From Rhodospirillales bacterium (lineage in GTDB: Bacteria > Pseudomonadota > Alphaproteobacteria > Acetobacterales > Acetobacteraceae): 52,936 bases of DNA. Positions 1,703 to 41,789 of the stretch are shown here, one piece after another (the stretch's first letter is position 1; each line of letters starts with the position of its first letter). Location of the stretch: assembly GCA_031420655.1 (NCBI GenBank), contig JANONC010000363.1:1-52936 (forward strand), written 5' to 3'. Position numbers and translations under genes: made by a program. The notes below the pieces were generated by a model. That model was not told the DNA's origin, ran no database searches, and saw only the letters and a list, made by a program, of their open reading frames with translations.

Positions 1703-4700
1703 ATGACGCATATTCGCGCCCTGTTTGGCCGCCGCCGGGTTAATGGCTTGCGGGATAAGCTATCCAAGTGCACCGCCGTATCGGGCCTCATGCATTTTGA
1801 GGCGCTCGAACCTCGTGTGCTGCTTTCAGCCGATCTGTTGCCAGTTCATGGATCATTGGACGTACCGGGTCAGCAGGACCATTACGCCTTCTCGCTCGAC
1901 ACCACCAAAGACCTCTATTTCGACAGCCGGACCAGCACGCCCCAGTTCAACTGGACGCTGAATGGACCCGGCGGCACGGTCGTTTCCAAGTCACCCTTCA
2001 CCCAGTCTGACTCCTACGGCATTGGCGGCCCGGCCGCGCTGCATGTGCCAGCAGGGGACTATACGCTGGATGTGCAGTCGCGGGATGGCACGACTGGGGC
2101 ATATGACTTCCAGCTGCTCGACCTTGCCAATGCCAAGCCGATCACTGCTAGCACTCCCATCGACGGCACCCTGAACCCGGCCAACCGCACGGACCTGTAT
2201 CGCTTCACCGCCACGGCGGGTGACACGGTATTTTTTGACGGCCACGCGCTAGACCAGCACTCGGTCGCATGGCGCGTGATCGGCCCGGACGACAACCTTA
2301 TTTTCGGCCCGAACAATGTGGGACAGGACACGGGACCCACCAAGCTCGATAAAACCGGCACCTATACCGTGATGATCGAGGGTGCGACCGATCAGACCGG
2401 GGCGGCCCCGTACAGCTTTACCGTCCTACCCGTGACCACCACGCACGCCACCTTGGCGCTCAATCAGACTGTGGCGGGTAGCCTTGCAACACCGGGGCAT
2501 AGCGACGCGTATAGTTTTGCCGTTACCCAGTTCACGCAGGTTGTGTTCGATAGCCTGAACAGCCGGGACGACGTGTCGTGGGCGCTGACCACCACGGGCG
2601 GTTTGCCAGTGGGCGGGGGATCGTTCGGTGGTTCCGACGGCAACGGCACACCGGCGTCCGATCTGCTCCGCCTTGCCCCGGGCGGCTACACGCTCACCGT
2701 CAGTGGGTCTGGCGCGGCGACGGGGGTGTATGGCTTCCGGCTTTTGGATACCGGCACGGCGCAGGTAGCCGCCGTCAACACGGCTATAACCGGCACGCTG
2801 GGCGATGCGGGTGCAGTGGCGCAGGGCATGCACATGTCTGGCGGCGCGCCGGTGGTGGACGCCTCCTCAGACCGCGCCACCAGCTTTGGCACCGCGCAGG
2901 TCGTGGGCACTGTGCCAGTCTCAATGGCACTTCAGCCGGACGCCTTTACGGTCGAGGCATGGGTCAACCGCGCCTCCACCGCATCCGGTAACCGGGATAT
3001 CGTGCGCCAGGGCTCGGGTGCCGCCGGCTATGCGCTGCTGGTCAGTGGGGCCGGGCAGCTCACATTCCAGGCGGGTGCCGCATCCGTATCCGCCGCAGCC
3101 GCGCTGCCGCCCGGCCAATGGACCCACGTGGCTGGCACGTTCGATGGTGCGACGCTGCACTTGTTCGTGGACGGCGTGGACGTGTCCGCTGCGCCGGCTG
3201 CGGGTGCGGTCGCGTATGACACCAACGGCGTGGTGCTGGGCGGCCGCGATCCGTTCGGCAACGCGGTCTGGAGCGGCGCGCTCAACGACGTACGGATCTG
3301 GAACACGGCGCTACCTGCCGGAACGATCGCCGCCAACCGCCTGCATGAGCTGGGGGCCGCACCCGGCCTGCTTGCCAACTGGCGGCTGAACGACGCCGCT
3401 GGCCTCACGCTCACTGATGCCAGTGGGCAGGGGCATGACGCGACGCTAGTCAACCTGCCCGGCACGGCCACCGCGCTGTATGCTATCCCGCTAACGGCCG
3501 GCCTGAGCTATACTCTGGAAAACCTGTCGTACGACCGCAACGACTCCGTTCGCGTTTTCAACCCGGCCGGGTTTCAAGTGGCATACAGCCAATACGAATT
3601 CATCGCGCCCACATTTACCGCAGAGGTGTCCGGGACCTACACGGTCGCGGTTGAGGGCAACCCCGGCAATACCCGGCCCGCCAATTTCAACGTCCGCTTG
3701 AACGAGGGCTCGACCGCGGTGCAGGCGCTCGCGGTGGGCCAGACGGCAAGCGGCACGATTGGGTTGCCGGGTCAGTCGGTCTCGCTCGGCTTCACGCTCG
3801 GGTCTGCATCGCAGCTAGTGCTTGACGTGCTGGATGCAGCGGCAGGGCTGCAATGGCGCCTCATTGGCCCGTCTGGCGCGGTTGTCCCAGCCAGCGACCT
3901 GACGCACGCGGACGGCTTTAATGCGCCGCAGAATCCGGTGCTGGCCTTGGCTGCCGGGCAATACCATTTGATCGTTAACGGCACCGGTACCACGACCGGT
4001 ACGTTCCATTTGCGCCTGCTGGACGCTGCTTCGGCAACGCCGTTTGCGCTGGGCACCACCCTGTCCTGGGCTGCGGACCAGCCGGGCGGTGCAACCCTCT
4101 ATACGTTCGCGGCGTCGGCCGGGGATCAAGTGTCGTTCCATCCCGGGTCGCCCGATGACAACATCGCCTGGCAGCTGCTGGACCCTACCGGACGCACGCT
4201 GTTCGGCCCGCATTCTGTGCGGGACGAGACGGGCGTTACACTAGGAGCGTCCGGAACCTATCTGCTGCTGATCGGAGGCTATCCGAACGGGTCGGCACCA
4301 TCCGCCAGCATTGGCACCAGCCTTGACAGCCACCAGGCTCCGGCGGCACCGGCTGGCACGCCACTCGCCCTAGGTGCCGTCGCGACCGCGACACCCGGGC
4401 CGGGTGCGACCGACCGGTACGTCGTGACCGTGGCAGCCGGGCAGCGCCTATATTTCGACAGCCTTACCAACAGCGACGGTGTAACCTGGTCGTTGGCAGG
4501 GCCGCGTGGCACGGAGGTATCGTCGCGCCGGTTCGACCAGACCGATGGCAAGGATCGGAACGATAACCCGGTTCTGGTTCTGCCGCTTGCCGGCCAGTAC
4601 GAGCTGGATGTGACGACCGGCGCGTCGTTTGGCGGACCGTATGCGTTCCGGCTGACGGATATCGACGCCGGCGCGACGCCGATCACGACCGACGGGGCCG

Positions 4701-10700: not shown

Positions 10701-13700
10701 CGTTCACGCTGACCCAGACCGGCACTTACCTGCTGCTGATCGAGGGCTACAAGGAAGACCTCAATCCCAAGCCGGTCAGCTTCCGGCTGGTGGACGCGAC
10801 GGCGAGCACGGGGACGCTCACGCTGGGCCAGACTGTCAAAGGCTCCATCGCCGCGCCGGGGCAGCAGGACATCCATAGCTTCATGCTGGCACAGGGTGCC
10901 ATCCTGTACCCGGATGCGCTGACGGCGGACGGTAACCTGACCTGGTCGCTCTATGGCCCGGCCGGCCTGGTGGATAGCCGCGCCTTCACCAGTACGGACG
11001 GCGATCAGCGCCGCACCACGGACGCAGTCGGCTTCTACGCGCCACCCGGTGCCTACCGGCTGGTGGTCACCCGCAACGGCGTTGGCACCGGTGCCTACCA
11101 GTTCCGCCTGACGGACTTGGCCACGGCCCCCGCCCTCGCACTGGGCACGGATACGCCCACAGTACTTGCCCCTTCCGACGAAACGCTGGCCTATGCCGTC
11201 ACGGCCGCGGCCGGCACCCGACTGCATATTTCGGCCACCGGCGGCACGACCGACTACATCAATCTACGCCTGCTCGACAGCGCAGGGCGGCTGGTAGTGT
11301 GGGCGCGGGCGCAGAACGGGATGGACACGCCAAAGCTCGCGGGTGGCACGTACACGCTGCTGGCCGAGGGCTACATTTCCGACGGTGCCGCGGCCGAGAG
11401 CCTGGTGGTCCGCGCCGATGTGATCACGACGCCCACGCAGCCCCTCATGCTCGGCACGCAGGTTGACTCGACGATCGCAACGCCCGGCCAGCGCCAGATG
11501 TACAGTTTCGACATCGGCCAGCCGACGCGCATCCTGATCGACCCGCTCGGCCTCGATGCCCGGTTCGATTTCACGCTGACGTATCCAGACGGCACCACCG
11601 CGACGCATGCCTTCAACTACGGCAACGACTTCAGTCAGCAGGAGCTGATCCAGGTTGGCGCGGGGCACTACACGATTTCGGTCGGGGCGAGCGGCACTGG
11701 TAGCGCCTCGTTCCGGGTGCTGGACTTTGCGGCGGCGGCCTCCATCACACCGGGCTTACCCGTCAGTGGAAGCCTGGGCGCGGGCGGGGCGGCGAACCTG
11801 TACCAATTGGCCGGCACGGCGGGCGAGCGGCTGTATTTCGCGACGCTCGCGCAGCAGGGCGGGAACGCGAGCTGGGTGCTATACGACCCGCAAAACGGCG
11901 TGGTGTTCAAAAGCGGGTTCTCCGACCAGGGCGTCGTGACCCTCGCCACCACCGGCACCTATGCCCTGGTGGTGTTCGACACCGGTTCCGATACCGCGCC
12001 GCCGCTGTCGTACACCTTTGACTTGTATGACGACACGCGGGCCGCCGCCGTGCCAGTCACGCCGCCCAGCACGGCACCCGCGCCGGACATAACGGTGGCC
12101 GCGCTAGCCGTCAGTGCGCCGGGGGGGCTGATCAACTCGGGCTCGCCCATTACTGTGTCCTGGCAGGACGTAAACAGCGGCGCGCTACCCGCTACGACCG
12201 GCTGGACGGACCGGGTGCTGGTACGCAACACCACGACGGGACAACTGATTGCCGAGGTGCGGGTGCCTGCGGCGTCACTGGCGGCAGGGGGATCGCAAGC
12301 CCAATCCATCTCAGTCCTGCTGCCCACGGGTGCGGCTGGTGCCGGTGTGCTGGAGGTGAGTGTCACAGCAGACGTGGACAACACCCTGCCGGAGCGCAAC
12401 GCGGCCGGCACAGGGTTCAGCAACAACGCCGCCAGCCTCACCATCACTTCGACCATCGCCAGCTATCCAGACCTGCAGCCCGGCACCGTGGTGGCAACGC
12501 CGGGTGGCAGCTACCTGCCCGGCCAGGTGGTCACGGTCACCTGGACCACGACCAACGCCGGCACCGCCGCAACCGGTCTGGGCGGCTGGACGGAGCAGCT
12601 GATCGTGCTGGACGAGACGACGGGCCGGCAGATCGCCACCGTCTCCGTCGTGCAGCCTGCCGGGGCCGCGCTGGCACCCGGTGCGTCTGCCACGCGGCAG
12701 GGCAGCTTCACGTGGCCGGCTGGCGCGGATGCAAGCGGGCTTTTCAGCTTCGTTGTCACGGTCGATACACTGAACCAGGTAATCGAACCGGCCGGGGCAG
12801 AACACCGGGCGAAGCTGGACGTGCTGTCCGCGCCGGATTTGGTCGTGGCCAACCTGGCCGTCGATCCCGCAACGCCGCCCCAGGCGGGTGGGCAGCTCAC
12901 GCTCACTTGGTCGGACGTCAACAGCGGCACGTTCACAACGGTTGGCGGCTGGAGCGACAGCGTATCTGTCTACAACGTCAAGACCGGGGTAACGCTCGCC
13001 AGCCTGGTAATGGCGGCCAATCCGCCATCCACAGGGTTGGCAGCCGGTGCAGCATTGCCGCGTAGCGTGAGCCTGCTGCTGCCCGACACGGCGGCCGCAT
13101 CCGGTGCCCTGGTGGTGTCCGTCATTGCCAACCGAAATAACAATAACCGCGCCGTGATAACGGAGGAAAATGCGGCGCAAAACGCGGACCGCAACAATTC
13201 GCAAGACATTACCATTACCAGCGCCGCGCGGTCCCATGCGGACCTCTTCGTCGCTGGCGTAACCGCCCCGGCCACGGCCCGCGGCGGCAGCCCGGTCGCG
13301 GTGTCCTGGACCGTTACGAACACGGGCGCACAAACGACGGATGTCGCGAGCTGGACCGACACGATCGTGTTCAGCCGGGACGATACGGCGGGTAATGCGG
13401 ACGACGTCGTGATCGGCCAAGTCGTGCATAGCGGGGCGCTCGCAGTGGGGGCGTCATACACCGCCGCCGGGTCGTTCGTGCTGCCGCGGGGCTATGACGG
13501 AACTGGGACCATCTTTGTCGAAACGGACGTGGCGGGTGCGGTAAGCGAGCCCAACCGGGGCCGCGAGTACATTGGCGCGTCTTCCCTTATCACCGTGACA
13601 TCGCCCTATGCGGACCTCATGACCGAGGCGGTGGCGGCACCCGGCACAGCCCATGCTGGCGACCGAATTACCGTGTCCTGGCGCGTCCGTGATTTGGGGG

Positions 13701-16700
13701 ATAGCGCGGCCACGGCCGGGTTCACGGACAAGGTCTATCTGTCGCAAACAGACAGCATCACCACCGGCAGCATCCTGCTGGGCGAAGTGCCGCGCAACGC
13801 GGATGTGGCCGTGGGGGCCAGCTATACCGCCAGCGCCGCGTTCAACCTGCCGGGCGGCGTGACGGGTGCCTATCACGTGCTGGTCGTGACCGACGCCAAC
13901 GGTGCCGCCTATCAGGGTGGACGCGCCGCGAACGACACGGGGCTGGCTGCGGGCACGCTGCTCATCGATGCGCAGCCGACGCCCGATCTAACTGTGACCA
14001 GCGTGTCTATACCTACGACGACGCTGCCGGGTATCCCGCAGACCATCACCTTTACCGTCAAGAACGTGGGTGAGGTGATCGCGCACGGCCCGTGGTCCGA
14101 TCAGCTGGTGCTGCTGTACGGGCCCACATTGGCTAACGCGGCGTCCCTCGCGCTGGTGCAGCGCAGCTTCGACCTGCAGCCCGGCGACAGCTACACCGTT
14201 ACCGCAACCGTAACGCTACCGGCCATCGACGATGCGAATGCCGTCATTACCGCCAATACCGACGCGGGCAGCAACGTGAACGAGGGCGGGCGGGAGGCGA
14301 ATAACAGCCTCGCCACCCCGGCGTTCACCACCACGCATCCAGACCTATCCCTGGTCGCGGTGCAGGCCCCCACGGCGCTAGTATCCGGCCAGACACTCAC
14401 CGTCAGCTGGACCACCATCAACAACGGTACCGGCACCGCGCAGCCGGGCTGGTCCGAGACGGCGACCCTGGTCCAGGGCGGCACCCGCACGGTCATCGGC
14501 ACGATCACACAGGCCGGCCTGCTGGCAGCGGGTACCTCCGTCGCGCGCCGGATCGACTACGCGCTGCCCATTTCGCTGCAGGGTGCGTACCAGGTCGTGC
14601 TGACGGTCGATCCGGACAACAAGGTGACGGAACCCGCCAGCGTAAAAGCGCACGAGACGGCGTTCTTGCCGCTTGCGGTCAACCTCGCCCCGTATGCCGA
14701 CCTGGCCGTCAGCCGCGTGACGGTCCCGCCCTCCACTATTGCTGACCCGGCCACCATCAGTGTTAGTTGGACGATCAGTAATGCCGGCACCGGTGCCGGC
14801 ATTACTGGCAGCTGGGTGGACGAGGTCGTCGCCTCGCCAGACACGATTGCCGGCAATGGCGACGACGTGGTGCTCGCCCGGTTCATGCACACGGGCGGGC
14901 TGTTGGCTGGCGCGTCCTATACGCAGACGCAGGCAATAGCTTTGCCGCCGGGCTTTACGGCGCACGACCATTTATTTGTGCGGACCAACGCGGACGGCAC
15001 CGTGTTCCAGAACGGCTTGGTTACCAATGATACGGCATTCGCACCGGGCACCTTCGACGTCATTCCCTATCAATATGCGGTCGATCTGGTGACGAGCGTC
15101 ATCGCCGCACCGGGGGCCAGTAGCGGGCAGCCGGAGAGTGTCACCTGGCGGGTCGCGAATACCGGCCCCGGCACGACCGATACCTCGGAATGGCTAGACA
15201 CGCTGTATCTCAGCCAGACGCAGGATGGCACGGACCGCCAACTGCTCGGCAGTTTCGACCACCTCGGCTTCCTTGCCCCCGGCGGCGGCTACACCCGCAC
15301 GGCCACGGTCACGTTGCCGCAGGGGATTCAGGGGCCGTTCTACTTCATTGTGGTCACCCCCGGCTCCGCCACGCCCAATAATAACGGCGCGCCCGGATCG
15401 GCAGGCTATGGCGGTGGCGCGCCGTTCGAGTTCACGCATGCCAATGACGGTACGGGCGTGTCGGCTATCGTCAACGTCGCACTGTCGCCGCCACCCAATC
15501 TGGTGGTCAGCAGCGTGGTGGTGCCCACGACGGCACCAGAAGGCACGGCGGTTGCGATTAGCTGGACGGTCGCCAACACCGGCACCGCACGCGCGGATGG
15601 CATGTGGACCGACCGGGTGCTGCTGCGCGCGCCGGGCGATGCCGGGCCGGGCACGGTGGTGGGGGATTTCACGCATACCGGCCCGCTGATCGCCGGGCAA
15701 AGCTACACACGAACGGAGGAGATCGTGCTGCCACTGCACGTCTCCGGCGGCTACTTCGTAACAGTCGTGACCGATGCAACGAACGCCGTGTACGAGGGCG
15801 GGTTCGAGGGCGACAACACCCGCACCTCCGCCACGCCGGTGCTGATCACGCTGCTACCCCGGCCCAACCTGGTCGTCAGCAGCGTGAAGGCCCCTCCGGT
15901 GGTCGATGCAGGCGGCAGCTTCTCGGCTTCGTTCGTCGTGACCAACACGGGTGCCGTGTCCACCGGGTCCACGCAATGGACGGACAAGGTATATTTGTCG
16001 CTCGACGGGACCGTGTCGCCCGACGATATCCTGTTGGGCACATTCCAGAATGGGTCGGCGCTTGACCCGCAGGGGCAGTACCAGACCGACACGCCTGCCG
16101 TGCGCGTGCCGCTGCGTTTTGGCGGCAACGTCTATTTGATCGTGCAGGCCAATGCGGGCGAGCAGGTCGATGAGTACCCGAACGGTGCGCAGAGCAGCCG
16201 GGCCACCCCGGTCTTTGTGAACCCGATCCCGTTCCCGGACCTGGTCGTGAGCCAGGTGACGGCACCCACCCTGACGTTTGAGGGTAACACGGCGACGGTG
16301 CACTACACCGTCACGAACCTCGGTGCCGGGCCGACCGATGGCTCTCCGTTTGCCGAGCAGCTGTGGCTCACGATCGACAAGCAGCGGCCCAACCCCGGCA
16401 AGGGCGACGTGCTGCTCAGCGAGATACAGAACACGGGCGGCAAGCTAGCCAAGGGGGCTGGCTACGACCGCACAGTAACCGTCCAGCTGCCGGCCAAGCT
16501 GGTTTCTGGCCAGTATTACCTGACGCCCTGGGTCGATCCGTATGGCACCCAGCTGCAGACGGAGTTGGCCGCCAACATCAACCCGGACGACCCGAACGAG
16601 AACCAGAGCGACAATTATAAGGCCGCTCCGGTGCAGATTATCGGCGTGCCGGTGGTGCCGGCCCCGTTGCCGGATGTGACGGTCACGGCCGTCGTGGCGG

Positions 16701-28700: not shown

Positions 28701-31700
28701 GGGCCGTAGTCGACAGCGGCGTTGTGGACGCGGCCGGTATAGCCCGCTCCGCCTCCCCACCCTATAACGGTTTCCTGTTGCCCGGCCTCACGAACCGCGC
28801 GTCGGTGCTGGTGGCCAAGACGGCGCGGCCGACCAACTCGATCTCGGTCGACCTGTCGTTTGAAGCGGCGATTGCGTTCATGACCCTGCCTCTGCTGGGC
28901 ATCGCCGCCATCTCGCCCATCAGCCTGGCCGTGGTCGCCCTGGGCGCCACGCAGATGGTGATCCCGATCATCAACGAAGTCGTGAAGCTCACCATCTGGC
29001 AATATTACGCCAGCAACAAGGACGGAACCGGCGCGCAAATCGCCGAGCTGGACCTGCCGGTGACGTTCGACCCGAAAGTGTCGGAGCAGCGCCTGGTCAC
29101 GGGGCTTCCGACCTTGGCGCCGATCCAGAAAGCCAAGCCGCAGATCAGCTTGCTCACGGCCACGCCGCAGAATGACGGCTCATTGATCCTAACGCTGACG
29201 GCCGTTGGGATTTCGCAAGAGGACAGCCTGCAGACCGACATCGTCTACAAATTCGGCAGTGCGGAGGTGGTGGCGGACCTCAGCACCGCGACTGTGACTT
29301 GGGCCAATGGCGTTACGACCTTTGCCAACGTCACGCCGCCAAAAGGCGTGCTGCTGGGCTTGGCGCAAATCGTGGTGCGGGTGCAGGTGGGTGACGTCGC
29401 GTTTGCCAATCCAAGCACGAGCCCGCCGGCGACGATCGCCAACAAGGCCGGGTATTTGTTCACCGGTGACGTGCGGGGGCAGAATGGCAGTGTCGTCACG
29501 GGCCCGGCGCTCGACGTGTTCGGCCGGCCCAGTGGGTCAGCGATCGAGCAGTTGATCAAGACCATCAGCCTCAATGGCCACCACCCGAAGGCGGTGCTCG
29601 TCACGCAGGACCTGTCGCGGGTGTTTGTTGCGACCGATAATGGCATCGACGTGATCGACGGGCTGACACTCAAGTATTACGGCCATATCGACGTGGGCGG
29701 CGATGGCAACGTGACAGCGCTGGCGGTCGATACCACGGACACGACCCTGTACGCGGCGCTGACGGGCAAAGTACTGGCCATCGACATCAAGCCCGGCGAT
29801 TACAAGTTCGATTACACGGACGCCATCGCCACCGGAAAAGATGCGCTGCCATACAAGAACCGCAGCACTATCGCGCTGGATAAAAACTTACTGCCGGCCG
29901 GCAATACGGGGCTGATCACGACCATTGCACTCAATTCCAACTCCACGCGCCTGTTCGTGGGTGTGCCGGGCAGCCGGCTATTGGGTGGCGGTAACACGGG
30001 TGCGGCCGTCATCAACGGCGGTCACGTTCAGAGCAAGATTTTCGTCGTGAATGTCGATCCGGCCGATCAGCCGGACGACCCCAAACTCAATCCGCAAAAG
30101 TACAACAAGGTCATCGGTCTGCCGATCGACGCCGGGCTGGATGTGAACACGATAGCGGCCGGGGAGCTACCGGAGCATATGATCTTCACGTCGCGCGGAG
30201 ACCTTAACCAAAAAGCCTATTCGGCGCAGGCGGTGACTACGGCAAGCGGCCTTCACACGATCCTCATCACTAAAGACGATCCGAATGATTTCCAGGTTAC
30301 GCTCAACTACAACGCCAATTCGAGCAAAGCCGGCGCGCCGATCAGCCTAGTGCTGAACCGCAATCCGATCATCACGAAGTATATTGGGCTGCGGCTGTCG
30401 GATGGGTCGCAGTTCGGTGACGTGCCCTTGCGTGGGGCGCCCCTCTACGGCGGCGCGCCACAGGCGGTCGACCTGGACATCCGTAACGCAACCGGCGTAG
30501 CGGTCCTGGCAGACGCGACCTATGCGTTCGTGGCCGATTACGACCTGCCTCGGGTCTATTACGAGAATTCGCAGCTCGCGAGCGACGACGAGAACCTGCA
30601 CCAGACCGGGGCCAAGATCGGCATCATCAAAGACCCGTTCACCAACCCGGTGCTGCTGGCGGCCACAACGCCGATCCCGCTCGGCTTTGCCGACAACCTG
30701 GTGTTGAGCGGCGACGGTACGAAGCTCTACGCCCTCTACCACGGCACGCAGTCGATCCTGGTGTTCGACGTCCAGACCATGATCGCCGAGGCGACCAAGG
30801 GTAAGGCCGCCTACGAGCTGGACTTCAACTTCACCGCCCTCGATAACCCGGCCAACCCGGTGATCGATGGCGGCACGATCAACCTGCCCGGGATCGACGT
30901 GCCGAAGCTGGTCGCGGGCTTGGCGGCGCAGGCTGTGGGTGCCATCACGCTGCTCTCGCCCTCTAGCCCCGTCGATGTCAGCTCCGGCACGCCGCAGCCG
31001 CTCGAGTTCCTGTTTAAAGTCGACATCGACGGGCTCGGGCTCAAGGCAGAAGGACACCCGAGCTTTCTTGACCCGAACGGGTTCGTCGTCGATCAAAGCC
31101 CGTACCACGCCGACGTGTTCATCAGTACGCAAGCGGCGGGTAGCGGCCTGTTCAGGAACGACTCACCAACACCGCGGACGGTGAATATCGCGGGCTATGG
31201 CAGCGGCATTGCGCCCGGCGAGTTTGAGCCCGGCATCGCCGGGGACATAAACCGGGATGTCGACCCGAACCGGATCTACACGTCCACCAAGCTCTACAGC
31301 CAGGGCTTCCTGGCCGGGCACAAATACCTGGTCGGCCTGGACCGCATGGTGGCGGACCTCGGCTTCTCGCAGACGTTGTGGGATTTGCACGAGACAAAGT
31401 TGACGTTCACCGCCGACTTCGCTTCCGTCCTGACAGCCGGGCAGACGCTGTATTGGGGCGTGCAGCTTCAGGAGAAGGACGTCCGCGCATCGTCCGCCTT
31501 CAAGACAGCGCCGGTCGCGTCGACGACGCCGTTTGGCACCGTGACGGTGCTGAACTCCGGCTTGCAACTGCCGACCGACCTGATTTCCAACGACACGACC
31601 AGCATCGACCAGTCGATCGACTTTGCCAGTCTGGCCGTGCTGGACCAGTTGGCGCAGTTGATCGTGACGGCCGATGGCGGCGGGACGGTGCTGTATTACA

Positions 31701-34700
31701 ACAAGCAGACTGGCCAGTGGGAGCAGAACCTGGCCGGGCACCTGACCGTGCTGAGCGGGGCCAGCCTGCCGGCGGGCGCCGTGGTGCTGGTGGGCGACTG
31801 GTCGGCTGAGGCGCAGGTGACCGACACCGGCTTTAGCGAGGCCGCGGCCGACGCCATGTTTGCCGCCATTGCGGCGCTGAGTAACCAGACGGGCGGCAAG
31901 CTGATGCTGTCGCCGTTCCACTTCATCGGCATGAACCGGGGTGCCTCCGTCAACTCCGAGATCGTGCAGCGGCTCGGCGTGCAATTCCCGGACAAGAAGA
32001 ACATCACGCTCACCTCGCTCGACCCGATCGAGGCGAACCAGAGCAGCCTCAATGTGCCGTTGAAGGGCCTGATCGATACGGCCGTCAATGCGCTCAATGA
32101 CATCAAGCTTTTGGCGCAGGCGCTGGGCTTGCTGTCCAACCCCTTGGCGCTGAAAGCCGTCAACTACGTCCTCAACACGGTAAAGACGGCGCTGGAGCGG
32201 ATCACTACGGCGGCGGCGGCGGCTGGCATTCAGATCGACCCGATCCAATACGCGGATCTCAAAGACCCGCCCGTGCAGAACTGGAACAACCTGGCCTTTG
32301 CCGACACGTATTATTCGCACTCGACGCAAGACAGCTCGACCACCAACAAGCTCGCGCTCGCCATCAACGTGGTCAGTAATTTTGGCGATACCCTGGCCGA
32401 CCCACGCAAGGCGTTGGAGGATGCGGCGGCCTTCCTCAAGGACAAGCTCGGTTCGCTCAAGACGAATGCTTCGGCCGCACTAAAGCTTGTGGTCGCGGCG
32501 GCAAAGAAAGACGGGCAGGTCGCGTTCGACAAGTTCGTCACGAACTTCAAGCAGACGGCGTCGGACAACCTCAGCCAGCTCAAGACAAAAGCGTCAGCCG
32601 ACACGTCGGCTGCTTTGAAGGCGCTTATCGACCGGCAATCCGGTCCGACAAAGGCGGCCGCGCAACAGGCGCTAAACGACATCATCGCCAATACCGAAGG
32701 TAAGGTCGCGACATTGCAGTCCGACGTGCAGCAATTGCTGACTGACACCGCCCAGCAATTCCATGACACGACAATCGCCTCGGTCAACGCGCTATTGGAC
32801 AGCGTGACGCTCGACAACGTGCTGTCGCTTATCGAGCGGCTGCCCACTGTCGACCCGAGCGTGGATGGCATTGTGGCCGCGCTCAACGACAGCAATGTCG
32901 GGGACGCGATCAACAAGCTGCCGTCGCTCGACAGCCTGTTCAGCACCTTCACGGCGGTGTTCGACCAACTGGTGACCATGACGACGGATACGGTCGCCAC
33001 CGTGACCGACAGCAACCTTGCCATCATCGACGGCGCGGCAGCGCAGCTCGGTGCGCAGTTGCAGCAGCAGATGAAAACGGCGGCGAGCGGCTTGCTCACC
33101 ACGCTGACCAGCGATTTTAAGGCGCAACTCAACACATTCTTCACGGTCGAAACGAAGCAGACGCAAGCCGCCATCAAGAACTTCGTTGATTTGCTGAAGA
33201 CCGACGCGGTCAAGCAGCTCAAGGCTGAGGCGGAGAAGCAGTTCAAAACTATCCAGAAGATCATCGAGAAGACCATCAAGGTCCCGACCTTCACCTTCAC
33301 GATCAACGGCCAGCAAAACCGCGCCGATAACATCAACCTCGACCTCTCGGACGCGTCCGGCTTTGGCCAGGACGATGGCGGGAGCCTGGCGACGCTGTCG
33401 ACAGGCAGCGATTTCGGGCTGGGCGGGCCGAACCAGCGGCTGGTGGCATGGTACGCTGGCACGGTCGGCACCGACCAATCCAGCTTCAACGGGCAGCCGA
33501 TCGACCGGCAGCTGGGCGACACGGGCCTGCGGGAGACGGTGTTCAGCACGCCGCTCCTGCTCAGCTCGCAAAGCTACAACAGCACGGGCTGGTATTTCGT
33601 CGATCCGGCCAAGGTCGTCGACAAGACCAAGAGCTCGGCCGCTGCTAATGCCAACCCCGGGGCGCTCAACGGTCCGGCCATAATCAAGGAAGGGGTCGGC
33701 GCCGGCTTCTACTTCGGCCCGGATGGCGGTGGCGCCCGTTATGCGCCCACCAGCAAGTCTGTGGTGCAGGTCGATCCCAAGGCCACCGACAACACGGTCG
33801 CCAAGCTGGCCGGCACCACCATCCCGCCGGTCGAGACGGTGTTCAACGGCAACTTCCAGCAGGGCATCAAGCAGTCGATCTTCCAGCATCTGCTGGACCC
33901 CACGGCCGAGTGGGGCCGCTTCCCGCTCAGCTACCAACTGCCGGGCTGGTCATTCCAGGGCGGCGGCGGCTTCCAGTTCAAGACCGGCGCACTGACCTAC
34001 CTCGGCCTGCCGCCCCAGGTGGACGTGACGGGGCTGTTCGTCGTCCCGGCCAAGGGGGCGGAGGCGGCGCTGACCTCGCTCATCAACAGCTATGCCGGCA
34101 AGGGCGTCGACCAGGCGGTCAAGTACCTGCAGACGTTGTTCCAGAAGAACATTGGCACGTTCAAGCTGCCGACTGCGCCAGACCCGGCCAAGATACCCGA
34201 CTCCAAGCAGTTCAAGATCGCCAGCGACGCGTTCAACAACCTGCAGGCGCAAACCACCCAGGCCGGCACGTTCTTTGCCACGCTCGTCCAAAAAAGCCTC
34301 GCCGCCTTCGGGCAGCCAACCGGCCCGGTCGACGCCGACGTGCAGGCGGTTCTCCAGCCGATCATCGCCACCCTGCAAGCCGGCTCCAACGGATTGCTGA
34401 CCGTCGCCAATGCGCTGGCGGATGCAAAGAAATTCGTGAGTGACCTCGCCATAGACATCAACACGACCAACGCGCTGATCAAATCGGTCTTCAACCCGGA
34501 AAAGGGCACGTTCAACCCGGCTGCGGTCACGAAATTCAAAGCCTTCCTGAACAAGGCGATCGCGACGTTCATCGAAAAGAACGGGCCGAGCGCGCCCTAT
34601 GGCCTGTTATTCGGCGGCTCGTCCGCCCTGACCTCGGTGCTCAACACCGCCTTCGCGCTATCGCCGGCCAGCCTGGCGGCCCGGACGGCCGGGTTCGACA

Positions 34701-37700
34701 GCGGCGCGTTCTTAAAAGACGTCGTCGACAGCACGTTCAAGTTCGACTCCCTCACGCATGACCGGGTGTATGTGCCAACCGGCAGCGAAAACCTGAACTT
34801 CAACGTCTACATGCCGCTGGCGCTCACGCCCAACCTCAAGATCGTCGTCACGGCCGCGATCGACGATGACGGTACCGTCACGTCAAAGGCGCTCCAGGAC
34901 CTCGCCCGCGACACCAACGCGCCAGACGCGTTGGCCGGCACGGTCATCAAGCAGACATTCGATATTCCTGGATCGTTCTTCCAAGAGTTCAACAAATCCG
35001 TTCACCTGGCCGGGTTCGGTGGGCACCAGGTGCTGTTCACGATCACAGCGTTGAACGCCAATGGCTCAATCGCCGCGCCGAATGCCGTCCTCAACGTGCC
35101 CAACCCGGCCACGATCCTGGGCGAAGGCTTCAGCTCGCTCTTCCTGTTGCAGGACGTGAGCTTTGCCGCCCAGCCCGATGCCAACGAATATGCCACCGCG
35201 ACGACCAAGCAACTCGGCGTCGTGACCGCGACGGGCACGCCCACGGCGGATCTCACGCTCGACGCCGTCACGCGCGTGGCGGCTGAGGCACGCGACAACT
35301 GGGTCACGAGCGGCCTCGTGCCGGACGCGGCGGCCAGGCTCGCCTCCGTGCAGGTCGATGTGGGGCTGCTGACCAACGGACAGATCGGCGGTTACAGCAA
35401 CGGCACTATCACCATCGATGCGTCGGGCTCCGGCGTGGGCTGGTACACCGGTGACGGCAGCGCCTACGCGGCCGGGCCCAACAACACGTTCCTGGCCATC
35501 ACCGGCGGCCCGGCCGCGCAGCACTTCGACCTGCTGACGGTGCTGGAGCACGAATACGGCCACGCCCTCGGCCTCGATGACTTGCCGGACGGCGCGGTGC
35601 CAGGTTCGTTGCTGGCTGTCTCGTTGCACGAGGGCGTGCGGATCCTGCCGACGGCCCGCGACCTGCAGACGGCACCCGCGGCCCCGGTGGCACCCGTCGT
35701 GACCCGTGCTAGCCTGGGCCTTAGCAACCATAACGCAGTCATCACGTCCGGTGTGGCGCTGGACACCCCGGCGCCAATCTATGGCCCGCTCGGCAATGGC
35801 GGCTTCACTATCACGGACCCGGCCGCCGCCGGCTATGCCTGGAACACCACCGGCACCGTTGGCTTCACGGCGGGTCACGCGACACTCACTGAGAACCGGA
35901 CGGTGCTGTCCACCCTCGGCCAGACTTTCCTGCTGGGTGGCACGCAGACGACATTGTCGTTTACCATACAGGGACAGCTGTTCCAGGATGCAGGCCGCCC
36001 GTCCGACTCGTTCGAGGTATCGCTGGACGGCCCGGGTGGCACGCCGGTCATGGGTGCGGCGGGCCTGACCCGTACCGACGATCTGCTGGACATCCAGGCA
36101 GACGGGACTGTGTTTTTGGCGCAGGGCGTGACCGTCAGCGGCCTGCGGGCCGATGGCAAGATCGACCTGTCGGCCGGGCCGCACACGGTGACGATCGAGA
36201 CCAGCACGCTGTCTCGCAATGCGTCGCTTACGCTCGACATCGCGCTCGTGACCTTTGGCACCCACCCGGCTGCGGTGACGGTCGCCAACGTCGGCGGCAC
36301 CAGCATTAGCGGGCCCATTGCGGCCAACGTGACGGCACAGGCCGTGTCCGGCACCCCTGTCAAGATCGACGTGCTGTCGGCCGATGGCGGCACGGGTCTG
36401 TCGCTTACCGCCGTGGGCGCGCCGTCGCACGGCACGGCGTCCATCCAGGACGGGCAGGTGCTGTACACAGCCGCGGCCGGCTACACCGGCGCAGACCAGT
36501 TCGTCTATCGCATCACCGACACTGCGGGGCTTACGGCAACCGGCACTGTGGCTCTCACGGTACGGCAATTGGTCGTACCGCCATCGACGGTGCCGGAAAC
36601 GGCAACGGTGGCGGAAAACGGCTCGGTTCTGATCGACGTGCTGGCGCAAGATAGCGGGACGGGGTTGGTAATCACCGCGCTGTCACCCGCGTTGCATGGT
36701 GCCGTGGCGCTGGCGGATGGCAAGGTCTTGTACACTCCGGCCACGGGCTATTCGGGCGCGGACGCGTTCACCTACACCATCACCGGCGCTGAGGGTGCCA
36801 CGGCGCAGGGCACTGTCACACTCAGCGTTGTGGCCAGCGCGCCGGCGCCGGTCGCCCGGCCCGCGACCGCTACGGTGGCCTCCGGTGCCACGATCGTGCT
36901 GGACGTTTTGGCAGCCGATACCGGCGTGGGTATCGCGCTGACCGCCGTCAGCACCCCCGCGCACGGTACGGCCAGCATCGTCGCGGGCAAGATCAGCTAC
37001 ACCGCCGACACCGCCTATGCGGGAACGGACCAGTTCACCTACACGATTACAGATCAGCTCGGTCAGACAGCCAGCGCCAGCGTCGGCCTGACCTTAATTG
37101 CGGGCGCGGTAATGCCGGTCGCCAAGCCGGCGAGCGGCACGGTTGCTGCGGGCGGCACCATTGTCATCGACGTGCTGGCATTAGATACCGGCACCGGCAT
37201 CACACTCACTGACGTCGGCACGCCGTCGCACGGCACAGCTAGCATCGTGGGTGGTAAGATCAGTTACACCGCCGGGGCAAGCTTCGCCGGGGCGGACCTG
37301 TTCGGCTACACGATCACCGATACGCTTGGCCAGACGGCGACCTCGGTCGTGGGCCTGTCGGTCGTGGCGGGTCCTGTACTGCCGGTTGCCAACCCTGCGA
37401 GTGGCACGGTCGCGTCTGGCGCTACGGTGGTAATCGACGTGCTGGCGCTTGATACAGGTACTGGCATCACACTTACTGACGTCGGCACGCCGTCGCACGG
37501 CACAGCCAGCATCTTGGGTGGTAAGGTCAGCTACACCGCCGGGGCAAGCTTCGCCGGGGCGGACCAGTTCGGCTACACGATCACCGATACGCTTGGCCAA
37601 ACGGCGACCTCGGTCGTGGGCCTGTCGGTCGTGGCGGGTCCTGTCCTGCCGGTTGCCAAGCCGGCGAGCGGCACGGTCGCGTCTGGCGCTACGGTGGTAA

Positions 37701-40700
37701 TAGACGTGCTGGCGCTTGATACAGGCACTGGCATTTCACTTACCGCCCTTGGAACGCCGGTGCACGGCACGGCCAGCATCGTGGGCGGCAAGATCAGCTA
37801 CACCGCAAATGCCGACTACGCCGGGGTAGACCAGCTCAGCTACACCATCACCGACTCGCTCGGGCAGCCCGCTACCTCCATCGCCGCGGTCACGGTCGTG
37901 CCGCCCAGCGATGCCGTGCCGGTCAAACCTACCGTCTTCTCCCCGGCGCTGGTGGTGGCGCAGAACGGGCCTACGACCGCCATCGGCATCGCCTTGCCGG
38001 CTGACCCGGCTTATCCAGCCACGAGCCTGGTCGTCACCATCGGCACCCTGCCCAGCACGGGCGGCGTGAGCCTGCCGGACGGCACGGTCATCACCGCCGG
38101 GCAGGTGCTGACGGCACAGCAACTTGCGGCGTTGCAGTTCACCCCGGCCCCGGACACCGCGGGCGTCAGCTCCACCCTGACCTACACGGTGGCGGACCCG
38201 GCTGGGCGCACCGCCACCGGCACCGCCACGCTCGTGATCGGGCCTGCGCAGGGCCACCCCGTTGCTGGCACCGTGCAGGTCACAGTCGCCATCGCCCCGG
38301 TCCCGCTGGCGATCGCGCCGCCGTTAGACGGCGACTACGCCACCAGCACGCTGCTGATAACCCTGACCGGCTTGCCGACCAGCGGTACGGTGTCGCTGGC
38401 AGACGGAACCGCTGTTGACGTAAGCCAGGTGATGACCGCGGCGCAGCTGGCCGGCCTCGTGTTCAGCGCGACACCCGGCGCGTACGGCTCCAGCTCTGCC
38501 CTTACCTACACCGTGCGGGACCCGGCCGGCGCCCTGGCGGCCGGGGTGGTTGGTATAACGGTACTGGGTGCCACCACGGCACCACCAGTCCTGACGCTGG
38601 CAAGCGGTGCTAGCCAGGCCATTCTGGACGAGGCGACCGCAGTGTTGTCCGGTACCGCAACACCCGGCGCGCTCATTACGCTGTCCGGCGGCCTCGGCTC
38701 CGCCCAGGCAGGGGCAGATGGGTCGTTCATCATCGCCATCCCGCTATCCGATGTGCCGCTGACGGGCTCGCGGCTGTCGATCACCGCGACCGCCGCGTTG
38801 GCCGGGTTCACGCTGTCGCCACCCAGCGCCGCGGTATCGCTGCTCGTGCTCCCGCCACCCGGCGCGGATGGCGTCGTGCTAACGGATGTCAGTTCCATAG
38901 ATATCGCGGACGCACTCCATGCCGGCTACCGCCTGCAGTTCACGGCGGTAACCGAGGCGCTTAACCTCGTTGATGGCGTGCTGAGCGTCGGCGTCGATAC
39001 GCATGAAGCCTTCCTGCAGCGCTTGTATGAGGGCCTGCTGGGCCGGTCATATGAGACGGGCGGCATGGAGGCCTGGGTCGCGGCGCTAGCCTCTGGGCGC
39101 TCACTGGAAGACGTGGCCCAGGGCTTCCTCAACTCGGCCGAATACCAAACCCGTCCGCAGCCCCGGACCGAGCCGGAGTTCATAACCAGCCTGTACCAGG
39201 GCTTCCTCGGGCGGGATCCGGTTGCGCCGGAGCTGTCGTATTGGCTGGAGGTGGGCAACCGTGGCCTCAGCCATGCCCAGATCGTCGCCTCATTCGGTAC
39301 GCAGCCAGAGGCCAAGATCCACTTGGCCGCGACCACGGCCCGCGTTTTCGCCCGCAGCGAGACCGCCACCGCCGTGCACGACATTTACAAAACCGCGCTG
39401 GGGCGAGAGGCGGAGCTGGGTGGCTTGGCCACGTGGACCGGTGTCGCCGGGCAGGGTGGCCTGCAAGCGGTCGCGGCTCTCTTCCTGCTGGAGCCAGAAG
39501 CGGCCGGCCTGCATGCGCGGCAGAGTAACGCGGATTACGTTCGTTCCCTGTACCTCGCTGGCCTCGGACGGGCGGCTAGCGACGCGGAGGTCTCGTATGG
39601 TGCCGGGCAGCTCGATGCCGGACTGTCGCGGGGCGCATTCCTACAGGGTGTCGCTTTGTCGCCGGAAGCGAGGGCGCACCTAACCTCGGATGATTTCAAC
39701 TCGCTGGCGCCAATCTTTGCGCTGCCTGTGGCTGCGGTCGCAGCCACTACTGTGCCGTCCATCACGCAGCCTGCCGCACGCCCCGCGCTGTTGGCGACGG
39801 CCCCGGCTACCGCGCTGGTAAACACGCAGGCTGTCGTCTCCCTTTCGGGCGGCGGGCGTGTCATGGGATGGACGGTGCTGTGGGGTGACGGCAGCGCGGC
39901 CATGACGGTCGCGGGTGACGTGGCGGAGGCGCAGCACAGCTACACCGCACCCGGCACATACGCGGTGCAGGCGGTCGGACGCGCGGCAGACGGCGTGTTC
40001 GCGGCCAACCCGCTCGCCATCGCGGCCACTGGCACGACATTTGTCCCTGCAGGCGTCGTGGCGGAACAGACCGGCTTTAATGCCCGGTTTAACCAGGCGC
40101 TGACCATCAGCAGCCTCACCTTGCTGGCGGATGCGTCCGGTACCGCACCGTCCGTTCTTGTCACTGGGCCAGGCGGCGGCACGATCGACGGTTCCGTCGT
40201 GGCGGACGCGGATGGCGCGGGCTTCCACTTCGTGGCTGCGGCCGGCGCGCTAGCACCCGGTGCCTACAGCGTCGTGGTGCGCAGCGCGGTGCTGGACGCG
40301 CGGGGCGAGGCATTGGACGGTGCGGCCGTGGGCGCGGCAGGCAATGACGAGCGGTTCAGCGTCACTGTCCCGGCCGGGGATGCGGTGACGATGCCATCGT
40401 TCATGCGGGGACCGGGCCAGGCCGTCAGTGTACCGGTTGCGGACAGCGCGCTGCCGGTATCGTTCACCAGCGGGGGGGAGGCGACGCGCCTGGTGTTCAC
40501 CACCACCGCCGATCCGGCTTTACTGGCCATCACCGGGGCCACGGCGGGCGCGGGATTGCCGGCGGGCAGCACCGTCGCCTTCGACACACAGCTCGTCGGC
40601 GGCCAAGCCCGCGCCACGATCACCGTCACGTCACCCACCCCTATTCCCGCTGGGACGGTGCCGTTGGTTCTGCTGCAAGCGGCGGTGCCGGCCAGTGCGC

Positions 40701-41513: not shown

Positions 41514-41789
41514 ATGAGCGATGACCCTGCCGCCGCGCAGCAGAAGCTGCGGTTTGACACGACCGGTATCAAAAGCAGCTACTGCAACGTCTGCAACGCG
41601 ACCAGCACCCGCGAAGAGGTTGTGCTGAATTTCGGGCTTAATAAGACGTGGGACGTGGCCGGTGCCGACCTGCAAGTGCAGTTGGAACACCGCATCATTT
41701 TAAGTCCATTTGCCGCCAAACGCCTGCAGCAACTGCTGACACAACTGATGACGGAGCATGAGGCGCGGTACGGACAACTAAACCAGTAA
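41514..41789 (+). CDS. DUF3467-like small protein (91 aa)
   Basis: Internal ATG of ORF 41397..41789, with a strong SD. The sequence MSDDPAAAQQKLRFDTTGIKSSYCNVCNATSTREEVVLNFGLN...HRIILSPFAAKRLQQLLTQLMTEHEARYG resembles the DUF3467 family pattern (Y.N......s..E.vL.Fg, then a C-terminal helix). The assignment is from memory. Confidence 0.75.
   Translation: MSDDPAAAQQKLRFDTTGIKSSYCNVCNATSTREEVVLNFGLNKTWDVAGADLQVQLEHRIILSPFAAKRLQQLLTQLMTEHEARYGQLNQ

Follow-up and report, generated by a model that had tools for sequence, protein, structure and literature searches.

The 52,936-nucleotide contig JANONC010000363.1 (GenBank assembly GCA_031420655.1), which derives from a Rhodospirillales bacterium of the family Acetobacteraceae and was analysed over its whole length (hereafter the window), carries one giant gene and, directly downstream, a small group of genes that recurs beside other giant genes. 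The giant open reading frame (ORF) opens with an ATG, runs for 13,261 codons (39.8 kb) on the forward strand and encodes at its N-terminus a basic stretch followed by the signature of the LEPR-XLL class of bacterial proteins. Behind it lie genes for a small DUF3467 protein, an adaptor that joins a GAF domain to a HlyD-type periplasmic adaptor, a fusion of PqqD-like, M50 intramembrane metalloprotease and HlyD-like parts (the M50 fusion), a short SecA-like ATPase, and a small HlyD/RND-type adaptor; we refer to this group as the cassette. Gene order and domain analogy single out the cassette as a strong candidate for the route by which LEPR-XLL giants are exported; this context is a more valuable result than the giant gene itself. 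The coordinates of all features are collected in Table 1.

The giant ORF was delimited by the ORF listing of the window, which contains no ambiguous base (N), and is preceded by an in-frame stop at 1643. No stop occurs in its frame, where 314 would be expected from the regional base composition (log10 P = −136, a chance of about 1e-136), and each of the remaining five frames holds 118-662 stops over the same interval, with a longest open stretch of 538 codons. The GC content at third codon positions (GC3) lies between 0.75 and 0.88 in all 1.5-kb bins, indicating that no frame change is hidden within the gene. An independent Joint Genome Institute (JGI) contig, Ga0167669_1000550, matches the final 6 kb of the giant and the downstream genes at 98.6% identity, and the differences between the two yield a ratio of nonsynonymous to synonymous substitution rates (dN/dS) of 0.26-0.33. 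Relatives with uninterrupted giant ORFs of 12,925, 14,929 and 10,518 residues were found, and orthologues of 10.5-14.9 thousand residues are colinear with the giant. The absence of stops, the GC3 profile, the dN/dS ratio and the uninterrupted colinear relatives together show that the gene is real and under purifying selection; we are almost certain of this and of its place in the LEPR-XLL class. The original prediction, made from the letters of the DNA alone, of a single 13,261-residue ORF open over 39.8 kb is thus borne out.

That prediction had also raised the concern that the repeats of so long an ORF might have been collapsed or expanded during assembly, and for most of the gene this concern falls away. 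Most repeats of the giant share only 30-45% identity as protein, and the sole DNA-level tandem array detected by Tandem Repeats Finder spans 36946-37854 (period 267, 3.4 copies, 82% matches). It is here that the two assemblies differ: the JGI contig lacks exactly 267 nt within the array, which corresponds in frame to one 89-residue Big_9 module. The copy number of this array therefore varies, or is uncertain, by about one unit, the extra unit of the window being either real strain variation or the result of a short-read collapse, while the rest of the giant is not at risk of collapse. In three related nanopore-style assemblies the giant gene is split into two or three ORFs. Homology to the giant of the window carries on across every junction, where the frame changes, and these breaks fall at differing sites (near aa 7730, aa 10206-10553, aa 9020 and aa 8420; aa, amino acid position). 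As judged from these alignments, the splits are indel errors or decay and not conserved gene borders.

Membership in the LEPR-XLL class rests on the NCBIfam model NF012209 ("LEPR-8K"), which matches aa 31-49 with 35.3 bits against a cut-off of 17. The LEPR motif is present a single time in the window, and none of 200 shuffles contains it. The highest 12-residue hydropathy within the first 60 residues is 1.3, and no hydrophobic h-region of the Sec type is seen there. A near-identical N-terminus (...HFEALEPRLLLSADFMPVHGSIDV) opens the giant of Mesorhizobium, and the Pontibrevibacter equivalent is annotated as "LEPR-XLL domain-containing protein". By its sequence, then, the giant falls within an established class of very large bacterial proteins and is not new in kind. 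The first reading of the locus had recognised one giant gene made mostly of beta-sandwich modules, which holds, but had overlooked both the LEPR-XLL signature and the cassette downstream; its remark that proteins of this size are rare in bacteria is correct in general, but members of this class average thousands of residues according to the name of the NCBI model.

The searchable literature treats LEPR-XLL proteins only in passing, and the class is otherwise known from database annotation. A Vibrio member has 8,000 residues and carries RTX and serralysin domains (PMC10868602), a Limnohabitans member is reported to be the relative to which more proteins of one Lake Baikal metatranscriptome were closest than to any other (PMC9611531), and for the LEPRxLL giants of Chlorobium chlorochromatii, Cag_663 (36,806 residues) and Cag_665 (20,647 residues), expression and transfer to the partner cell have been reported (bioRxiv 10.64898/2026.03.19.712371).

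The class is defined by its N-terminal signature only, and this signature co-occurs with an invariant set of genes encoding a truncated SecA and a protein resembling a leader protease. In the window, the M50 fusion has a GTG start at 43641, 3 nt past the stop of the GAF-containing adaptor, the longest ORF beginning at 43581. Its first 390 residues match the full length of NF041824, the model for daptide intramembrane metalloproteases, with an E-value of 2e-42, which is under the equivalog cut-off. This resemblance to a protease combining PqqD and M50 domains, together with an intact HELGH motif, suggests that the fusion may bind and remove a leader. Matches of the SecA-like ATPase to SecA models extend to about position 490-555 in models of some 790-815 positions, with every score under the cut-off; among the Pfam and NCBIfam models no SecA_SW match was obtained, and the scaffold, wing and C-terminal domains are absent. 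In the window and in its close relatives, loci L087 and L088, the gene for this ATPase points the opposite way to the other cassette genes; in the alphaproteobacterial plasmids all cassette genes share a single strand.

The same gene order was found next to giants in further loci (L001, L087, L088, L089-L091, L092, L093 and L094), with a DUF3467 gene in the equivalent position in L001, L005, L087, L088, L091, L092 and L093. The cassette follows the giants of two metagenomic relatives (12,925 and 14,929 residues) and those on Mesorhizobium contigs and on plasmids of M. ciceri R30, Pontibrevibacter and Alisedimentitalea; on plasmid pMSC49a of Methylosinus sp. C49 it follows a giant gene and is completed by a TolC gene. 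Rhodobacterales plasmids are among its carriers. A metagenome survey with a profile of the M50 fusion recovered 80 loci. The short SecA lies behind the M50 fusion in all 44 loci with enough flanking sequence and the GAF-HlyD gene ahead of it in 49 of 50, DUF3467 being present in 21 of 44. TolC-like genes were found inside 14 of the 80 loci, and nine ORFs neighbouring the cassette start with a basic stretch and LExRxLLSA. The closest named relatives of cassette and giant come from an Acetobacteraceae metagenome-assembled genome (MAG; 57%), Mesorhizobium (53%) and fragments of Burkholderiales MAGs, all Pseudomonadota. On this ground a planctomycete origin, to which the LEPRxLLSA motif and a GC content of 66% had pointed, was discarded. 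A contig scan with the short-SecA alignment, for which generic SecA peptides had been chosen, yielded little but housekeeping SecA, about 40-46% identical.

Literature searches on combinations of genes in the cassette yielded nothing beyond a general review of efflux pumps and type 1 secretion, and no published description of it; the cassette is conserved and apparently undescribed. Public names for its products vary. In L091-L093 the short SecA is entered as "prepilin peptidase", "DEAD/DEAH box helicase" or "preprotein translocase subunit SecA", and the M50 fusion as "PqqD family protein" or "hypothetical protein". Reading these genes as one cassette would correct the annotations "DEAD/DEAH box helicase", "prepilin peptidase" and "PqqD family protein". 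A second large ORF with a LEPR-type N-terminus lies beyond the SecA-like gene in some loci (L130, 16388-22141; L095, 14345-18490), and one cassette may therefore serve several substrates. In L087, which among the relatives with a long contig is the closest, a multi-methyltransferase/glycosyltransferase gene for 1,552 residues (4486-9144) adjoins the small adaptor gene and hints that the giant might be modified; the window has no recognised counterpart.

Table 1. Features of the giant gene and the downstream cassette in the window. Residue positions of the giant convert to nucleotides as nt = 1703 + 3 x (aa - 1). TM, transmembrane.
Feature	Coordinates (nt)	Strand	Evidence
Giant ORF	1703..41488	+	ORF listing, composition, stop statistics
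Putative N-terminal leader: basic stretch, then HFEALEPRVLLSA (LEPR-XLL domain, aa 31-49)	1703..1849	+	NCBIfam NF012209
24 PPC-like beta-sandwich modules, aa 57-3447, interrupted by three LamG_3	1871..12043	+	Pfam, self-comparison
Three LamG_3 within the PPC array	2927-3331, 6302-6784, 7658-8125	+	Pfam, E 1e-25 to 1e-32
17 CARDB-like modules, aa 3461-5626, with DUF11 matches	12083..18580	+	CARDB E 1e-40
First non-repetitive block, aa 5700-7100: PPC, DUF7619, weak SGL/Reg_prop propeller-like signals, Big_5	18800..23002	+	
8 He_PIG Ig-like (immunoglobulin-like) modules, aa 7125-7977	23075..25633	+	He_PIG E 1e-33
DUF6531-like segment and 2-3 YD/RHS repeats, aa 8188-8450; a fragment, no full Rhs shell	26264..27052	+	
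Dockerin-like double EF-hand segment, aa 8561-8611, under the Pfam cut-off; then Big_9 and Big_2 Ig domains	27383..27535	+	
Hydrophobic helical hairpin, aa 9051-9095, sole TM-like segment of the giant	28853..28987	+	Hydropathy
Candidate all-beta propeller-like region, aa 9269-9790	29507..31072	+	
Lipase-like module, aa 9934-10215, of a family without Pfam or PDB match	31502..32347	+	
Helix-rich region, then conserved region of unknown fold, aa 10216-11169	32348..35209	+	Low-confidence model
Small metzincin-like module, aa 11170-11330, with HEYGHALGLDD at aa 11283-11293	35210..35692 (HExxH 35549-35563)	+	
8 Big_9/tandem-95 modules, aa 11542-12296, housing the 267-nt tandem array	36326..38590	+	Big_9/tandem-95 E 3.5e-91
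Three DUF4214 (E 1e-31), then PKD_4 (weak, E 1e-4, under cut-off)	38999..39976	+	Pfam
Cohesin (PF00963), aa 13112-13218, preceded by a weaker cohesin	41036..41356	+	45.5 bits, cut-off 24.1
Conserved extreme C-terminus, ...SRTRAARARLLAGAA-COOH	41435..41485	+	
DUF3467 small protein, 91 aa, 26 nt past the stop of the giant	41514..41789	+	Pfam 63.5 bits, cut-off 25
GAF domain, one TM segment and HlyD-type periplasmic adaptor, 611 aa, 13 nt past the DUF3467 gene	41803..43638	+	
PqqD-like / M50 intramembrane metalloprotease (HELGH, ~5 TM) / HlyD-like fusion, ~716 aa	43641..45791	+	Pfam, NCBIfam
Short SecA-like ATPase, 660 aa: DEAD motor, PPXD, NBD2	45810..47792	-	Pfam, NCBIfam
Small HlyD/RND-type periplasmic adaptor, ~265-281 aa	47743..48588	+	

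The encoded protein has a mass of 1,353 kDa and an isoelectric point (pI) of 4.49, with 1,055 acidic and 597 basic residues. Its single cysteine, at aa 23 (nt 1769-1771), lies inside the leader, N-terminal to the LEPR motif; removal of the leader, if real, would leave a mature giant free of cysteine. Domains were called with Pfam and NCBIfam, and repeats were located by comparing the protein with itself. Repeats extend over aa 1-5700, are missing from 5700-7000, return at 7000-8000, are again missing from 8000-11400 and reappear at 11400-12300. About 57 beta-sandwich modules are recognisable (24 PPC-like, 17 CARDB-like, 8 He_PIG and 8 Big_9), in addition to the three LamG domains, and the first non-repetitive block is conserved and colinear in the Mesorhizobium giant. 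The protein is organised in at least eight zones.

This layout refines the one first proposed, a repetitive stalk, a unique centre and a repetitive tail. Those three parts exist, but they do not exhaust the protein: a second non-repetitive block at 18.8-23 kb (aa 5700-7100) interrupts what had been described as some 26 kb of continuous module arrays, of which only aa 1-5700 and 7000-8000 are repetitive. The PPC-like, LamG, CARDB and He_PIG calls made at the outset agree with Pfam and NCBIfam, and the non-repetitive stretch at about 28.4-35.7 kb does contain a hydrophobic segment and an HExxH motif, in the form of one hairpin (aa 9051-9095) and one HExxH (aa 11283). Among the modules assigned to the tail, the repeats (Ig-like by Pfam), DUF4214, the cohesin and a weak PKD were recovered; the dockerin-like module was not, its sole match lying at aa 8561-8611 (27.4 kb). 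That segment has a double D-x-N-x-D-G motif and scores 19.4-20.6 bits against PF00404, where the cut-off is 22.9; the candidate copy in the tail is not significant in Pfam (E 0.39).

The C-terminal part of the giant ends in ...RTRAARARLLAGAA, and the same peptide closes the giants of L087, L088, L004 and L005 and is found near the end of the partial tail in L006. The terminal peptide of this clade, R-x-R-A-A-R-A-R-L-L-x-G-A-A-COOH, stands directly behind the cohesin domain. Other C-terminal ends are found in the giants of Mesorhizobium and Pontibrevibacter, that of Pontibrevibacter being a hydrophobic stretch followed by RRERTKR. By their domain types, the C-terminal Ig-like repeats, DUF4214, PKD and cohesin could have a role in binding or assembly.

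The region that follows the hairpin combines propeller-like, lipase-like and metzincin-like parts. A search with the whole region (aa 8900-11400) returned three homologues, at 66, 46 and 37% identity, a number that is an undercount, since the L087 giant shares the region and was not returned; very long proteins seem to be poorly represented in the index. For the propeller-like region, no match was found in Pfam, and the PDB gave only non-significant WD40 matches (E 0.02-0.05). AlphaFold2 models of aa 9030-10229 and aa 10500-11400 reached a mean predicted local distance difference test (pLDDT) score of 36.8 and 33.1, respectively; built from alignments of only three or four homologues, they are unusable.

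The lipase-like module (window 31502-32347) belongs to a family with at least 836 representatives (among them proteins P0172-P0320) that Pfam and PDB profile searches do not recognise. Even with a profile of 15 sequences, the module has no match in Pfam or the PDB, NCBIfam gave nothing significant for this module or for the propeller-like region, and the 836 relatives, retrieved by an exhaustive profile search, lie nearly all within proteins of 1,000-7,000 residues. Relatives P0002 and P0003 read THGF ... DW.ES ... HFIGHSRG ... TSLDPHD. Such an order of motifs would correspond to that of pancreatic-type lipases. At the corresponding sites the window has NSGL, GMNRG and LDPIE, and the closest relative has GIDRG; the module of the window thus lacks the nucleophile serine (GxSxG) and the HG oxyanion histidine that P0002 and P0003 keep. 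Of 58 full-length copies, 30 retain the serine, and the others have G, D or N in its place. The lipase-like module of this giant is, on these grounds, probably catalytically dead, and the loss of both residues makes a functional payload uncertain for this part of the protein.

In the metzincin-like module, HEYGHALGLDD at aa 11283 fits the zinc-binding motif HExxHxxGxxH/D and is invariant in four homologues. The match to Pfam Peptidase_M10 is weak (E 0.005), and at the site of the Met-turn downstream of the motif the homologues read ...PGALM... and the window ...PGSLL.... The HExxH site is intact, and the module is a candidate that could act on a substrate or on the giant itself.

Past the point at which the two proteins diverge, the Mesorhizobium giant carries, in order, a Lactonase seven-bladed propeller, Lipase_3, Peptidase_M10, a Big_9 array, PKD and cohesin. 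There the propeller is over the Pfam cut-off, Lipase_3 has GHSLG, and Peptidase_M10 (E 2.7e-10) has HEIGHVLGLPH. Because the order is the same, the plan of a stalk, a propeller-lipase-metzincin head, an Ig array and a cohesin is conserved beyond the reach of sequence similarity. The propeller and hydrolase fold originally proposed for the centre gained no direct support from Pfam, the PDB or AlphaFold2, and the Mesorhizobium giant supports them indirectly; likewise, the idea of a long spacer presenting a functional centre is credible as an organised plan of stalk, head and tail, with the reservation that the lipase-like module has lost its serine. The giant exemplifies a conserved plan that joins a stalk, an enzyme head and a cohesin tail, one of its enzyme modules having probably turned into a pseudo-enzyme.

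Some features of the window lie outside giant and cassette. Its first 1.7 kb (1-1700) have a GC content of 0.555 compared with about 0.66 and contain a 185-residue DDE transposase fragment (51-608) and a 245-residue ORF (605-1342) with a hydrophobic N-terminus, several cysteines and no family match; this low-GC stretch may be an insertion beside the giant gene. Scans of nt 1-2000 for promoters and terminators gave matches at chance level only, and at gathering thresholds no Rfam family matched in the window. Between 48600 and 51100, overlapping ORFs without family matches lie on both strands, where the calls on the JGI contig are of 72-178 residues.

How might a protein of this kind be handled by the cell? 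The cassette offers the best clue. The domain types, the pI of 4.49 and the single cysteine give the giant an extracellular character, and it is probably an extracellular, fibre-like protein. Its LamG, CARDB, PKD and cohesin modules suggest a role in adhesion or in forming a matrix. The explanation that best accounts for the whole, and which we hold with moderate confidence, is a LEPR-XLL giant guided by its leader through TolC-type export driven by the SecA-like ATPase, and deployed outside as an acidic fibre. The basic stretch with LEPRVLLSA would act as a leader unlike the signals of the Sec and Tat routes; its recognition would fall to the PqqD-like domain within the M50 fusion, as in the pathways for ribosomally synthesised and post-translationally modified peptides (RiPPs), and the intramembrane metalloprotease would probably remove it. 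The short SecA-like ATPase would power the threading of the unfolded chain, and the three HlyD-type adaptors would bridge to a TolC-type outer-membrane channel encoded elsewhere in the genome. The cytoplasmic GAF domain may gate or regulate export, with DUF3467 as a putative accessory. The acidic, cysteine-free, modular chain would leave the cell unfolded and fold outside, where a fibre several hundred nm long (an estimate from the approximately 57 modules, assuming roughly 4 nm for each) would present lectin-like and Ig-like binding modules together with the enzyme-like head, and the cohesin and dockerin-like parts would allow attachment or self-association.

In this detailed form the export model is possible but falls somewhat short of probable. 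We infer it from gene neighbourhood and domain analogy, and several observations weigh against it. The window holds no TolC-like gene and no obvious inner-membrane channel besides the M50 domain. The short SecA lacks the parts with which canonical SecA docks onto SecYEG, and in the clade of the window its gene lies on the opposite strand. Structure prediction for the head failed (pLDDT 33-37), and the central hydrophobic hairpin could mean retention in a membrane in place of release. The idea of DUF3467 as a SecB-like chaperone found no support: hhalign against an approximate E. coli SecB query gave a probability of 0.5%, and no relative was found in the PDB.

The foremost alternative is that the giant is a classical type 1 substrate like LapA, MpIBP or SiiE, with a C-terminal signal and an ABC/HlyD/TolC exporter encoded elsewhere, the cassette serving another purpose. 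The authors of the Chlorobium study assume such a system for the LEPRxLL giants (bioRxiv 10.64898/2026.03.19.712371), and the RTX and serralysin domains of the Vibrio LEPR-XLL protein (PMC10868602) fit it, as do the HlyD-type adaptors adjoining the giant gene, the appearance of the giant as an acidic, cysteine-poor fibre of Ig repeats, and its conserved extreme C-terminal peptide. That peptide, however, is specific to the clade, whereas it is the N-terminus that distant members share. The giant contains no RTX nonapeptides (searched with the regular expression GGxGxDxUx) and has no HemolysinCabind match. An ABC transporter was found neither by the Pfam scan of ten flanking ORFs of the window nor among the gene calls up to 10 kb from the cassette of L087 and L088, and the annotations next to the clusters of L091-L094 list none; what recurs without exception, in 44 of 44 loci, is the SecA-like ATPase and not an ABC protein. 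We consider type 1 export unlikely.

Alternatively, the giant could be a scaffold retained in the envelope, where the hairpin at aa 9051-9095 would anchor it in its own or a target membrane and hold the stalk of 9,000 residues and the head and tail of 4,000 residues on set sides. The hairpin, which all four homologues conserve, is the one TM-like segment of the protein, the similarity to the Mesorhizobium giant breaks off at aa 9024, just before it, and giants of Omnitrophota pair TM regions with SecA-like domains (bioRxiv 10.1101/2023.11.21.568195). Both helices are short and contain prolines, though, and the Mesorhizobium giant has no such segment at an equal hydropathy threshold, yet is accompanied by the cassette. 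Retention of this kind seems to us quite improbable.

The DUF6531 and YD/RHS matches at aa 8188-8450 invite comparison with polymorphic toxins, in which case a conserved N-terminal part of about 9,000 residues would inject a variable C-terminal cargo into neighbouring cells by Rhs-type delivery. Homology to Mesorhizobium does end at aa 9024, with differing sequence beyond, and transfer of LEPRxLL giants into a partner cell has been reported in Chlorochromatium (bioRxiv 10.64898/2026.03.19.712371). The Rhs signal itself is slight: two or three YD repeats (about 260 residues, with two YDxxGR motifs) stand against about 1,000 residues for an Rhs shell, the RHS core model is matched only at 462-535 of 1261 positions (31.7 bits, cut-off 2000), and DUF6531 scores 22.5 bits against a cut-off of 24.1. 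The only DPxGL sequence lies at aa 3280 in the PPC array, so that no such boundary is present near the C-terminus. In both lineages the supposedly variable part shows one and the same domain order and closes with Ig repeats and a cohesin instead of a toxin, and the next gene encodes the conserved DUF3467 protein and not a lineage-specific protein of the immunity type. Delivery of this sort is very improbable.

Finally, an assembly artefact or a decaying pseudogene, with repeats collapsed or expanded or an ORF no longer expressed, is excluded for practical purposes: the two observations that could favour it, the 267-nt copy difference and the broken genes of the nanopore-type assemblies, are respectively in frame and due to frame changes at non-conserved sites within unbroken homology, the remaining repeats are too diverged to be seen by Tandem Repeats Finder, and GC3, dN/dS and the stop-free frame all point to selection on an intact gene.

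Returning to leader-guided export, the few proteins of more than 10,000 residues whose making and export have been studied rely on type 1 systems and C-terminal signals. Leader and cassette, with or without TolC, might represent a widespread and undescribed pathway for giants, in which a SecA-type motor replaces the ABC protein, a metalloprotease removes the leader and HlyD and TolC components span the envelope; we put this forward tentatively, as a generalisation more doubtful than probable. Such a cassette could explain why SecA-like domains recur in or near the giant genes of other phyla. Culturable bacteria carry it on plasmids (NZ_CP088148.1 of Mesorhizobium ciceri R30, pMSC49a of Methylosinus sp. 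C49 and NZ_CP049813.1 of Pontibrevibacter nitratireducens), which makes it accessible to ordinary genetics.

Individual parts of the locus resemble well-described proteins to differing degrees. The giant carries the HExxHxxGxxH/D motif of metzincins, while its lipase-like module lacks the GxSxG and HG of alpha/beta-hydrolase lipases. As in cellulosome-type cohesin-dockerin proteins, a cohesin is present and scores over the cut-off; the dockerin-like segment remains under its own (19.4-20.6 against 22.9 bits). The N-terminal 390 residues of the M50 fusion, with HExxH inside TM segments, are like the PqqD-plus-M50 proteases of RiPP pathways (daptide NF041824; the YydH/LiaK family). The fusion differs from these in its score under the equivalog cut-off, in its HlyD-like extension and in its presumed substrate, a protein of 13,261 residues instead of a short peptide.

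With the giant RTX adhesins (LapA, MpIBP, SiiE and BapA) the giant shares long, acidic, cysteine-poor Ig chains with ligand-binding domains near one end, and HlyD-type adaptors, as well as TolC in related loci, adjoin the gene. It differs from them in having no RTX repeats, no ABC transporter in the flanks scanned and a conserved signal at the N-terminus; the SecA-like ATPase and the M50 fusion stand in the place of HlyB. A SecA motor without scaffold and wing that is tied to a giant has been described in Omnitrophota and Actinobacteria, whose giants contain built-in SecA DEAD and preprotein-binding domains proposed to serve their own export (bioRxiv 10.1101/2023.11.21.568195). Their loci encode type II/IV-like systems and giants with many TM regions, unlike the window, where the motor is a separate 660-residue gene product accompanied by HlyD adaptors and the M50 fusion.

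Further counterparts are the LEPR-XLL giants themselves (WP_205793450.1 of Pontibrevibacter nitratireducens, 10,603 residues; Cag_663 and Cag_665), which share the basic N-terminus with LEPRxLLSA, the extreme length and the repetitive Ig- and lectin-like content. Domain content varies from member to member: the giant of the window is without RTX or haemagglutinin repeats and bears a head of propeller-like, lipase-like and metzincin-like parts whose sequence has very few relatives. The Pontibrevibacter giant, too, is followed by the cassette. Another counterpart is WP_255337275.1 on the plasmid of Mesorhizobium ciceri R30 ("Ig-like domain-containing protein", 10,518 residues). It is shorter, has no hairpin at an equal threshold, ends in another C-terminus and is followed by cassette genes all on one strand; it also retains the canonical GHSLG and HEIGHVLGLPH where the window has GMNRG and HEYGHALGLDD. 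It is 39% identical over 5,563 colinear residues (window aa 3589-9024) and shares with the giant a near-identical N-terminus, the order of the domains downstream and the cassette that follows.

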